This document shows, piece after piece, positions 8,373-9,703 of a stretch of DNA of 32,000 bases. The stretch covers positions 1 to 32,000 of the forward strand of contig JAUWKS010000035.1 of assembly GCA_030614005.1 (NCBI GenBank), read 5' to 3'. The translations under genes were made by a program, and so were the position numbers. This DNA is from Candidatus Heimdallarchaeota archaeon (lineage in GTDB: Archaea > Asgardarchaeota > Heimdallarchaeia > JABLTI01). Each line of letters begins with the position of its first letter. The stretch's first letter is position 1. Under the pieces are notes generated by a model that made no database searches, was not told the DNA's origin, and was given only the letters and a program-made list of their open reading frames with translations.

Positions 8373-8732
8373 ATTTAATTTTATATGAGAGTATAAATAG
8401 AAATCAGTATGGGAATTGAATGACAGATTAGTATATTCAAACTGAAAGGTGACAAAGGACTAGCCTCTAGGAACGATAATTGTGTTTGTATAAAGAAATG
8501 TCAGTTTTTATATCAATAAAGATGAAATATTGTTTATAATAGGGCGTCATCTGGAAATAGAAAAACAACGTTGGTAAAGATTTTCAGCGGTCTTAATCGT
8601 TCTTCAATGATTGTTATATCTGGTGTATTAAAGTTACAAAGTTATCCTAGGTTTCATCTATTAAATTTTGTAATTGGATTCGTAATTTTAATTTAATAGT
8701 TTCAATCTTATCTTAGTCTTTGCATAGGGATT

Positions 8733-8749
8733 GCAAAAAGGTTAAATAA
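8733..8749 (+). promoter_or_regulatory. BRE/TATA-like promoter positioned to start transcription at about 8771-8773
   Basis: gcaaaaag-gttaaataa: a purine-rich BRE-like stretch followed by a TTAAATAA box centred about 26 nt upstream of the first base of the RNA closing stem. Confidence 0.5.
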
Positions 8750-8771
8750 TATCAGCTAAAAATAAAAACTA

Positions 8772-9009
8772 CTGGAGTTGGACCAAATATGGGTTCGTAA
8801 CCTATATACCTGATCAATTACTAAATTGATAATTGTCTATCTCAGCACTAGACCTTGCTGGGTTTGTAGCCTTGATAGGTTAAATCCATTACCGAGCGCA
8901 AGCTGGTTAATGATGATATAGATTTAGAAAAATAAATGATAATTGTAAACATTTCTTGACTTAAAAAAGTCAAAAAGCGGTGGCTCATAACCGCGCTAAC
9001 CAACTCCAG
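8772..9009 (+). ncRNA. Unclassified ~240-nt multi-branched structured RNA (leader or independent ncRNA)
   Basis: Closing stem ctggagttgg (8772-8781) / ccaactccag (9000-9009) is a perfect 10 bp. It encloses six helical arms, including agc-GCAA-gct (GNRA tetraloop) and several G-U pairs. G+C is 89/240 (37%) in 8771-9010 versus 12/60 (20%) in an ordinary intergenic stretch (7741-7800). Confidence 0.75.
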
Positions 9010-9040
9010 CCAATTATACTCAATAGAGATGGTGATAAAA

Positions 9041-9703
9041 TTGAAAAAAACATTAGGAGACGCATTTGCACTTCGTAAAAAAATAGATAATGAACTGAAT
9101 ACCTGGATAAATCGATTAACATTAGCAAGTAAAAACACAGTACACTATAAGACAAAAGCAATTGAAGGAGATAAGAAATTCCAATCAATACCAGGTACTA
9201 AGAAAACTTACACAAGAAATTATACTATTGAAGAATGCCGAGAAAGAATTCAAAAGCTTATTGCTGAAGATCAAAAACTTGCATTGCAAATTTCCTTAAC
9301 AAACCAAAAGGCAAAAGCTACGGTAGTAGACCTAGATGGAAAAGAACAAGAATTAACTATTCCTGAATTACTTGTTCTTCGAAATGAAATTGCTCCAAAA
9401 GTTGAACGTGCTGCACGAGCAATACCAATTAGAGCTTCTGGTGTTGAGATTGTTGAGGATGGAAAAGATAAGATAGAATTCCGAGTAATAAAAACAAACT
9501 ATGTCAACAAGCAAACAATGAGCGAGAAAGGCAATGTGTTAACAAATAAGATCATTGAGGATTTCAATATAGAAGAAGTTATAGACTATGGATTAAAACA
9601 AAGAGAAGTCTTTGATTATATAGATGAAATTCATTCCTGGATGTTTCGAATCAAAGAAGCAATAAACATGGCAAATAAGACAGAATTAGAAGAATTAAAA
9701 TAA
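9041..9703 (+). CDS. DIP1984/DUF6847-like alpha-helical protein
   Basis: Three segments fit the recalled family pattern: TLGDAFALRKKI (like KLAEAL..R..L), QISLTNQKAKATV...LTIPELLVLRNEI (like RIN.TN..T.V...TLAEAL..RD.L) and IDEIHSWMFRIKEAINMANKTEL (like ID.L....R.L...IQ..NW.TEL). GGTGAT (9031-9036) precedes TTG 9041. The ORF track start is ATG 9029. Confidence 0.6.
   Translation: MKKTLGDAFALRKKIDNELNTWINRLTLASKNTVHYKTKAIEGDKKFQSIPGTKKTYTRNYTIEECRERIQKLIAEDQKLALQISLTNQKAKATVVDLDGKEQELTIPELLVLRNEIAPKVERAARAIPIRASGVEIVEDGKDKIEFRVIKTNYVNKQTMSEKGNVLTNKIIEDFNIEEVIDYGLKQREVFDYIDEIHSWMFRIKEAINMANKTELEELK

Follow-up and report, generated by a model that had tools for sequence, protein, structure and literature searches.

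The 32,000-nucleotide stretch of DNA considered here (hereafter, the window: positions 1 to 32,000 of contig JAUWKS010000035.1, from Candidatus Heimdallarchaeota archaeon) carries on its + strand, at positions 8772-9009, a real, strongly conserved and pseudoknotted non-coding RNA (ncRNA). The RNA, 238 nt in length, extends from the 5' strand to the 3' strand of a closing helix, P1, and is followed by the gene of a 220-residue protein (9041-9703), a homologue of which adjoins it in at least 126 of the 139 loci tallied with iterated nhmmer profiles (about 90%). It constitutes an ncRNA gene in its own right, linked to a single protein gene, and not merely a switch in a 5' untranslated region. The most economical mechanism would be that of a ribonucleoprotein (RNP), and, as far as Rfam 15 and a search of the literature go, the RNA-protein pair is probably undescribed.

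A preliminary description of the window had placed a discrete folded RNA, of a class that it could not name, on the + strand at these positions; the letters are as given there, and the proposal has held up. The minimum free energy (MFE) of the + strand is -72.6 kcal/mol, as against -45.4 +/- 4.3 kcal/mol for 200 dinucleotide shuffles (z -6.34), a control that the description had itself suggested, and none of the shuffled sequences folds as well (0/200); the fold of the - strand is weaker (z -4.74). The MFE structure contains seven helices (P1, P2, P3, inner P4, P5, P6 and P7). The G+C content, 37%, is raised as described, albeit over surroundings of about 27-30% and not the supposed 20% or so. 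Within the 3.6-Mb, 126-contig genome, the element is single-copy: a covariance model, R1, built from archaeal copies, gives one match in the whole genome (8772-9009, 116.3 bits), and the remaining sequence matches are due to chance and span at most 46 nt; an origin as a miniature inverted-repeat transposable element or other repeat was thus ruled out. A BLAST search with the RNA against 60 related genomes likewise returned short chance matches only, and homologues were reached via the protein encoded at 9041-9703. Inspection of the regions upstream of its homologues, also suggested in the preliminary description, revealed a homologous RNA directly upstream of the gene in archaeal loci; in the three closest relatives (loci L164, L166 and L165) it can be aligned base by base, with compensatory changes. 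R1 also matches bacterial loci, directly downstream of the gene, and, in all, the RNA is conserved in about 130 loci, with a length of about 190-240 nt.

The secondary structure is underpinned by covariation. An untrimmed MAFFT alignment passed to RNAalifold misaligned P1 and recovered P7 only, a fault that was cured by trimming the copies to the ends of P1; in the resulting alignment (A4; 22 archaeal copies), a scan of all column pairs recovers P1, the inner hairpin of P4 (Pb) and P7, together with a new pairing between the 5' junction and the loop of P7. In A4, 92.3% of cells are paired; shuffling lowers this share to 65.1% and sliding the partners to 30-49%, and the respective values for an R1-derived alignment of 44 copies, bacterial ones included, are 93.6%, 59.5% and 30-47%. 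The covariation that the preliminary description had put forward as a check is, therefore, abundant: in the 44 copies, double changes are seen in all four helices, namely, in 10/10 pairs of P1, 6/6 of the pseudoknot, 5/5 of Pb and 3/5 of P7. Since the pseudoknot was left out of the covariance model, its count is unbiased by the alignment method; moreover, it is also recovered by an all-against-all covariation scan based on a hidden Markov model (HMM). Among the copies, the pairing takes forms such as GAAGG/CCUUC, AUGAG/CUCAU, UUGAG/CUCAA, GUAAG/CUUAC, GUGGG/CCCGC, AAAUGG/CCAUUU and UGAUGG/CCAUCA. The features of the RNA, all on the + strand, are as follows:

8772-9009 (+): the structured ncRNA as a whole, single-copy and without an Rfam match
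8772-8781 (+): 5' strand of P1, pairing with 9000-9009; changes on both sides in every pair, with 97.5% of cells paired in 44 sequences
8782-8788 (+): conserved junction ACCAAAU (consensus A-Y-C-R-A-A-K), near-invariant in archaea and bacteria
8789-8794 (+): 5' strand of the pseudoknot, AUGGGU, pairing with 8983-8988 and overlapping the 5' strand of P2; 88-92% of cells paired
8793-8800 (+): motif G-U-Y-(N)-G-U-A-A (GUUCGUAA in the window), in the loop of P2; GUUGUAAA, GUUCGUAA or GUUUGUAA in every clade
8813-8830 (+): P3 hairpin, clade-specific; retained in L164, L166 and L165 with substitutions such as C-G to U-G, unalignable in other clades
8835-8841 (+): conserved block GUCUAUC, with little or no variation among copies from Asgard archaea, Actinomycetota and Myxococcota
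8842-8861 (+): Pb, the inner P4 hairpin (UCAGCA/UGCUGG; 8842-8847/8856-8861); 87% of cells paired
8862-8868 (+): conserved block GUUUGUA, 3' of Pb; UUGACGUA, GUUCGUA or UUUGUUGUA at the same place in all clades
8881-8926 (+): P5 hairpin, an insertion that varies and is capped here by a GCAA tetraloop; L164 and L166 show compensatory changes, other clades a different hairpin or none
8956-8973 (+): P6 hairpin, optional; present in L164, L165, L166, the GC-rich Asgard copies and L030, missing from most Loki-type copies
8977-8994 (+): P7 hairpin (8977-8981/8990-8994), 99% paired; its loop (8983-8988, GCUCAU) is the 3' strand of the pseudoknot
9000-9009 (+): 3' strand of P1, pairing with 8772-8781, with the same covariation as the 5' strand

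The six-arm architecture previously drawn within P1 is, thus, upheld in part. Inner P4 and P7 are, like P1 itself, supported family-wide; P3, P5 and P6 show compensatory changes among the close relatives (L164, L166 and L165) and are clade-specific, other clades having different hairpins at these places; and the outer helix of P4 (8836-8841/8874-8879) is not conserved as a helix, its 5' strand sitting in the GUCUAUC block. P2 (8787-8793/8801-8807) does belong to the MFE structure, and P2-like hairpins are present in some clades, if not across the family, but it competes with the covarying pseudoknot (8789-8794/8983-8988), which the preliminary description had missed: in the window, formation of P2 (-6.6 kcal/mol) precludes that of the pseudoknot duplex (-4.2 kcal/mol), and vice versa. 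GUCUAUC is one of the conserved single-stranded blocks, the others being GUUYGUAA (8793-8800) and GUUUGUA (8862-8868). A three-pair candidate joining UYG (of GUYGUAA) to UGR after P7 is weak and varies on one side only, and the helices picked out by eye, Pa (CUUAGG/CCUAAG; Loki clade only), GUCNA/UNGAC and CGUC/GACG, are inconsistent across clades; none of these was adopted. In bacterial copies (e.g. L104:2178-2373), about ten GUA or GGUA triplets are seen (GGUAAC, GGUAAA, UGUAA, GGUAC and AGUAAG, among others), some of which form GUAA or GUAAA hairpin loops.

The RNA also has its own promoter. In the window, a TATA box (TTAAATAA, 8742-8749) begins 30 nt 5' of P1, and a TATA-like box lies at -32 to -28 from P1 in 16 of 28 unique archaeal copies. 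In bacteria, a TANNNT hexamer (mostly TAGACT or TAGGCT) begins at -19 to -12, with a mode of -14, in 38/48 unique copies, those on the strand opposite to the gene included, and at no other place within the 50 nt 5' of P1. The fixed distance from P1 of a TATA box in archaea and of a -10 box in bacteria places the start of transcription at or beside the first base of P1 in all arrangements of RNA and gene, as had been proposed from the window alone. In the Actinomycetota (e.g. L133:650-690 and L104:2140-2178), the -10 box of the RNA, TAGACT, coincides in part with the final codons of the protein gene and its stop (CTA GAC TGA), and the C-terminal Leu-Asp of the protein may be constrained by the promoter of the RNA. 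The features that flank the RNA in the window are:

8742-8752 (+): TATA box TTAAATAATAT, with a purine-rich stretch resembling a B recognition element on its 5' side (8733-8741); conserved in L164 and L166
9010-9040 (+): short A-rich leader with a Shine-Dalgarno sequence, GGUGA (9031-9035), and no T run
9041-9703 (+): partner gene, encoding the 220-residue protein, with a TTG start at 9041

The position of the RNA with respect to the partner gene takes three forms across the family:

upstream, same strand: 35 loci, all archaeal-type, at a spacing of 15-62 nt
downstream, same strand: 68 loci, in Actinomycetota, some Myxococcota and Planctomycetota, and two AT-rich archaeal-type contigs
downstream, opposite strand: 23 loci, mainly in Myxococcota
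no RNA match: 21 loci, 8 of them lacking flanking sequence

The finding is, accordingly, of larger scope than the preliminary description had thought, in that the linkage to the neighbouring gene extends to bacteria and comprises three arrangements. Since the RNA is found on both sides of the gene and in both orientations, and brings its own promoter, its general role cannot be that of a leader acting purely in cis. In archaeal loci, synteny is limited to the RNA and the gene, the flanking genes being different; in bacterial loci, no neighbouring gene family is present in more than 7 of 48, a count for which the clustering of open reading frames is noisy in GC-rich DNA. Only 16 of the 399 Asgard species genomes searched possess the protein gene, and the 10 genomes of the same genus all lack it. 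All 16 carry the RNA as well: it is adjacent according to the model in 14, it takes a divergent form recognized by eye only in G048 (L184), and in G174 the sole copy found lies on another contig, the upstream flank of the gene being cut off. This orphan copy (L171:1501-1690, - strand; contig C123 of G174) is situated between two convergent genes, with no gene behind it; a TATA-like box precedes it by about 30 nt, and P1 is followed by a T run. G174 carries its protein gene at the cut end of contig C117. A Helarchaeota locus (L026, = L173) contains two tandem copies of the RNA upstream of the gene (L026:2440-2629 and 2761-2960; 90.4 and 134.6 bits). On an AT-rich contig (L120), a module of gene, RNA and a run of eight T residues is flanked by a tRNA gene and by a fragment resembling a tRNA T arm (1170-1260 and 2460-2495), which hints at an integrated element.

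The sequence that follows the RNA differs according to arrangement. In downstream and orphan copies, a T (or U) run follows a few bases after P1, as in the two downstream archaeal copies (L120 and L152). In the archaeal leaders of the upstream arrangement, by contrast, a run of at least five T residues is found in 0/27, despite the AT-rich DNA, and a GGUG or AGGAG Shine-Dalgarno sequence in 21/27. Spacings of 15-62 nt leave little room for a second promoter and a leadered start, such that the RNA is likely to be the 5' domain of the mRNA too; in the window, it probably serves also as the leader of 9041-9703. By eye, an ACC or CACC directly 3' of P1 is complementary to the GGUG of the Shine-Dalgarno sequence in the window (within 9010-9040) and in most archaeal leaders, and this putative pairing seems to be retained in variants: CUUCAA/UUGAGG in L030, UCCUAC/GUAGGA in L165 and GCAUC/GGUGU in L084.

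TTG 9041 is the most likely start of the partner protein because its homologues begin M-x-x-TLGD. These homologues share 45-92% identity (45-50% between archaeal and bacterial members) and occur in Asgard archaea (named Heimdall-, Loki-, Hel-, Hermod- and Hodarchaeota) and in bacteria of the Actinomycetota (Nocardiopsis, Murinocardiopsis, Streptomonospora and other Streptosporangiales), Myxococcota and Planctomycetota. The family is small, comprising 60 representative clusters in a profile search of 1.84 billion proteins. A confident AF2 model (pLDDT 85.6) shows four long helices with beta-sheet inserts, the best fold matches being helical hairpins, Rogdi (TM score about 0.3) and unnamed phage or bacterial proteins. 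Acidic residues are conserved at seven positions (E69, E80, D81, E126, E183, D186 and D199). Apart from a borderline relationship to the Pfam family DUF7873 (PF25283), there is no match for the protein in Pfam, NCBIfam, PADLOC or PHROGs, and a tblastn search of plasmid and phage collections found nothing. A likeness to DIP1984/DUF6847 that had been proposed earlier finds no support from any HMM, its sole sign being an Atlas feature score of 0.80; a likeness to RNase HII, with an E value of about 0.8 for a PDB sequence profile, was treated as noise.

The relationship to DUF7873 merits closer attention. The Pfam cut-off of 27 bits is just reached by two homologues from bacteria, P0077 (27.2 bits) and P0086 (27.9 bits); the window protein has no DUF7873 match at E<=1, nor was one found in a six-frame search. 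An hhalign comparison of the partner family (A1) with an alignment of canonical DUF7873 (A7) gave a probability of 0.2, which is not significant, although some motifs line up, and canonical members, of which there are more than 5300 (versus about 60 representative clusters for the partner family), were not reached in the profile search. The partner protein would, on this evidence, be at most a remote relative of DUF7873. A Myxococcales genome with the present module (L053) also contains a canonical DUF7873 gene (337.8 bits; G401:C14, L189), and this gene, too, is followed by a structured RNA (L189:1000-1470, - strand). The latter has two textbook T arms (GGTTCGAATCC; GGAGG-TTCGAAT-CCTCC and CCGG-TTCGAAT-CCGG) and a D-arm-like element (GCG-AAATGGTAGA-CGC), whereas the window RNA family has neither and is built around its pseudoknot; R1 gives no cross-match to it (best 8.4 bits), and Rfam also has no match. 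The two systems are alike in that a dedicated structured RNA with a long terminal stem lies beside a small, highly conserved protein, with no Ro60, and they differ in that only the partner family extends to Asgard archaea. On sequence grounds, the window RNA is distinct from that of canonical DUF7873.

Searches against established RNA families agree with the earlier view that this class has no name. Rfam 15 gave no match at the gathering score across the 32-kb window and, at E<=10 over 8600-9150, matches at chance level only (best 23.8 bits, against a cut-off of 59 bits); similarly, nine archaeal loci were free of matches at E<=0.1, as were, at E<=0.01, 15 loci from bacteria or archaea, and no match at E<=10 in six family loci overlaps the RNA. 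The preliminary description had also argued that the RNA is not that of RNase P or the signal recognition particle (SRP), nor a tRNA, and this is borne out: the genome has its own SRP RNA (G000:C30:13260-13566, 105.4 bits) and RNase P RNA (G000:C82:11342-11674, 125.3 bits), both above cut-off and on other contigs, ARAGORN predicts no tRNA or transfer-messenger RNA (tmRNA) genes in the window, no tRNA model matches at E<=10, and a partial tmRNA match of 7 bits is noise. The model for YrlA-type Y RNAs (RF02553) has no match at E<=10 in the window or in six family loci, and none of the Rfam ribozyme families matches. A box C-like sequence, AAUGAUGA (within 8905-8972), accounts for weak matches to C/D small nucleolar RNAs (19.5 bits, E 0.48) and is probably due to chance, as it is not retained in L164 or L166, which have AAUGAAGA. 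The literature search found nothing on DUF7873, DUF6847 or a Nocardiopsis RNA motif, and no comparable report among publications on Asgard riboswitches.

From the conservation and structure of the RNA, the placement of its promoter and its linkage to the gene, all of which are observed, we infer what follows concerning physical binding, processing and function. The 10-bp P1 closes the RNA, and the long-range pseudoknot between the 5' junction and the loop of the last hairpin locks its fold. In the proposed mechanism, the RNA and the adjacent 220-residue protein would most likely assemble into an RNP, with the RNA as scaffold or cofactor. In this Asgard lineage, where no terminator separates the RNA gene from the protein gene, a single primary transcript probably begins with the folded RNA and continues into the mRNA; co-transcription would then couple synthesis of the protein to the output of RNA, and could allow assembly or autoregulation in cis, for instance if the particle forms on the RNA as it is being made or if the ACC or CACC after P1 masks the Shine-Dalgarno sequence. 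That the RNA and the protein constitute a dedicated RNA-protein particle we regard as an even call. Slightly less assured is the broader proposal, namely, that this is an undescribed RNP of Asgard archaea and at least three bacterial phyla, in which the pseudoknotted RNA of ~200 nt, its core conserved in both domains, serves the small protein as an obligate scaffold, cofactor or catalytic subunit, and that the branches of a DUF7873-like superfamily each recruit a different RNA. By analogy, the canonical DUF7873 gene of L189, likewise followed by a dedicated structured RNA of another kind, would lend support to an RNP.

Several observations weigh on the other side. The adjacency of RNA and gene is by itself no proof of physical binding, and in 13 loci with adequate flanks on both sides of the gene, there is no RNA match, albeit two of these have divergent copies by eye. 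The partner protein has no recognized RNA-binding domain, and its isoelectric point ranges from 5.6 to 8.9 across the family; nor did fold searches (Foldseek against PDB and BFVD; VIA-align wide, AFDB clusters and Atlas) return anything informative. Lastly, a look-up of the data sets that hold the window led to DNA from cold-seep and marine-sediment metagenomes, with no RNA run listed.

Four other explanations have to be set against the RNP. The first, which we consider rather unlikely, is a toxin-antitoxin-like or defence module that spreads horizontally, in which the RNA would neutralize the protein or act as its sensor, following a logic like that of type III systems. A two-part module with varying neighbours, its patchiness among Asgard genomes, the level of identity between the archaeal and bacterial proteins, the preponderance of phage proteins among look-alikes in fold and features, and the tRNA sequences on either side of the L120 module would all fit such a role. 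A type III toxin-antitoxin system proper was, however, rejected, as the RNA is one complex fold with no tandem repeats or repeat array, and the protein has no PADLOC match. The PHROG and NCBIfam models and the plasmid and phage collections gave no match either; furthermore, the module is single-copy, and the distribution of the gene across many species of Nocardiopsaceae and Myxococcota looks vertical.

That the RNA is a cis-regulatory 5' leader, either a riboswitch or an autoregulatory protein-binding element, controlling translation or read-through in Asgard archaea, is unlikely, and the same low probability attaches to the corresponding expression platform, in which the exclusive choice between P2 and the pseudoknot would be combined with competition of the ACC or CACC after P1 for the GGUG of the Shine-Dalgarno sequence. 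The 35 archaeal loci with the RNA on the same strand, a short way upstream of the gene, and with a Shine-Dalgarno sequence and no T run after it are what a leader would predict; the tandem copies in L026 recall some riboswitches, and the conserved unpaired nucleotides and pseudoknot look like a ligand pocket. Such a role could not apply to the 68 loci with the RNA downstream, or to the 23 with it on the opposite strand, where it has its own -10 box, and it is at odds with the orphan in L171 and with the T runs that end the downstream archaeal copies in L120 and L152. Moreover, the complementarity to the Shine-Dalgarno sequence, which most archaeal leaders and their variants seem to keep, was seen by eye.

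Distinctly unlikely is a degenerate, one-headed tRNA mimic, akin to YrlA and other Y RNAs and kin to the RNAs of canonical DUF7873, that would imitate tRNA for the benefit of tRNA-handling enzymes. The bacterial partner proteins do reach the DUF7873 cut-off (27-28 bits), the canonical gene in L189 has a tRNA-mimic RNA, the RNA shares with Y RNAs a long closing stem, and, judging by the letters, the AYCRAAK junction and GUUYGUAA loop may resemble the sequence of a T loop. Nevertheless, no canonical T arm or D arm is seen in the alignments of about 110 family copies, nor is there a loop-capped acceptor stem, and the searches with ARAGORN and with the tRNA and RF02553 models, the negligible R1 score of the L189 RNA, the insignificant hhalign probability and the failure of the window protein to match DUF7873 all argue against it. 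A ribozyme, self-cleaving or of another kind, or a guide RNA such as mobile elements use (of the omega-RNA or bridge RNA type), is very improbable: the flexible order of RNA and gene does parallel IscB/TnpB and IS110/IS1111, the core of the pseudoknotted fold is highly conserved and the conserved acidic residues of the protein could be catalytic, but the element is present once and is not bordered by terminal repeats, domains of nucleases, recombinases or reverse transcriptases are absent from the protein, and the RNA matches none of the Rfam ribozyme families.

The RNA-protein pair, considered as an RNP, may be compared with several known systems. OLE RNA is about 600 nt in length, confined to the Bacillota and represented in Rfam, and works as an RNP with the membrane protein partners OapA and OapB; like the window RNA, it is a large, conserved and structured ncRNA with an obscure biochemical role and an adjacent partner gene. 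The window RNA is far shorter, occurs in Asgard archaea as well as bacteria, and has no Rfam match to OLE. Riboswitches and other 5' leaders resemble it in their position between promoter and Shine-Dalgarno sequence with no terminator, in a pseudoknotted core and in conserved unpaired nucleotides; they differ in that, in most other lineages of the present family, the RNA comes after the gene or is read from the opposite strand, under a promoter of its own. The omega-RNAs (IscB/TnpB) and bridge RNAs (IS110/IS1111) are also structured RNAs of about 150-250 nt that lie 5' or 3' of a protein gene according to lineage, whereas the window module is single-copy, lacks both element ends and any transposase or nuclease domain, and matches neither HEARO nor a related family in Rfam. 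YrlA and other Y RNAs with Ro60 (Rsr) are closed by pairing of their 5' and 3' ends and adjoin the gene of their protein partner. In YrlA, the terminal stem is followed by the junction motif GNCGAAN0-1G, and the tRNA-like domain comprises, in order, V, the T arm, the acceptor stem-loop and the D arm (Chen et al. 2014, PMC4201824). A CGAA-containing motif after the terminal stem is shared, its form in the window family being AYCRAAK; the window RNA, on the other hand, has none of the tRNA-like T, acceptor and D modules, there is no Ro60/TROVE gene among its neighbours in the window (which encode RHH_8, TPR and FG-GAP proteins), and its partner is unrelated to Ro60.

The present pair would add a family of structured RNAs to the Asgard archaea, conserved in sequence and fold between these and the Actinomycetota, Myxococcota and Planctomycetota, and it represents a well-defined two-component system that is tractable in culturable carriers (Nocardiopsis, Murinocardiopsis and Streptomonospora). 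Taken together with the canonical DUF7873 case in L189, it suggests a superfamily of proteins specialized in partnering dedicated RNAs. Large, highly conserved ncRNAs of obscure function are rare, and those of RNase P and SRP, tmRNA, and the OLE, Y, omega and bridge RNAs each opened a field.

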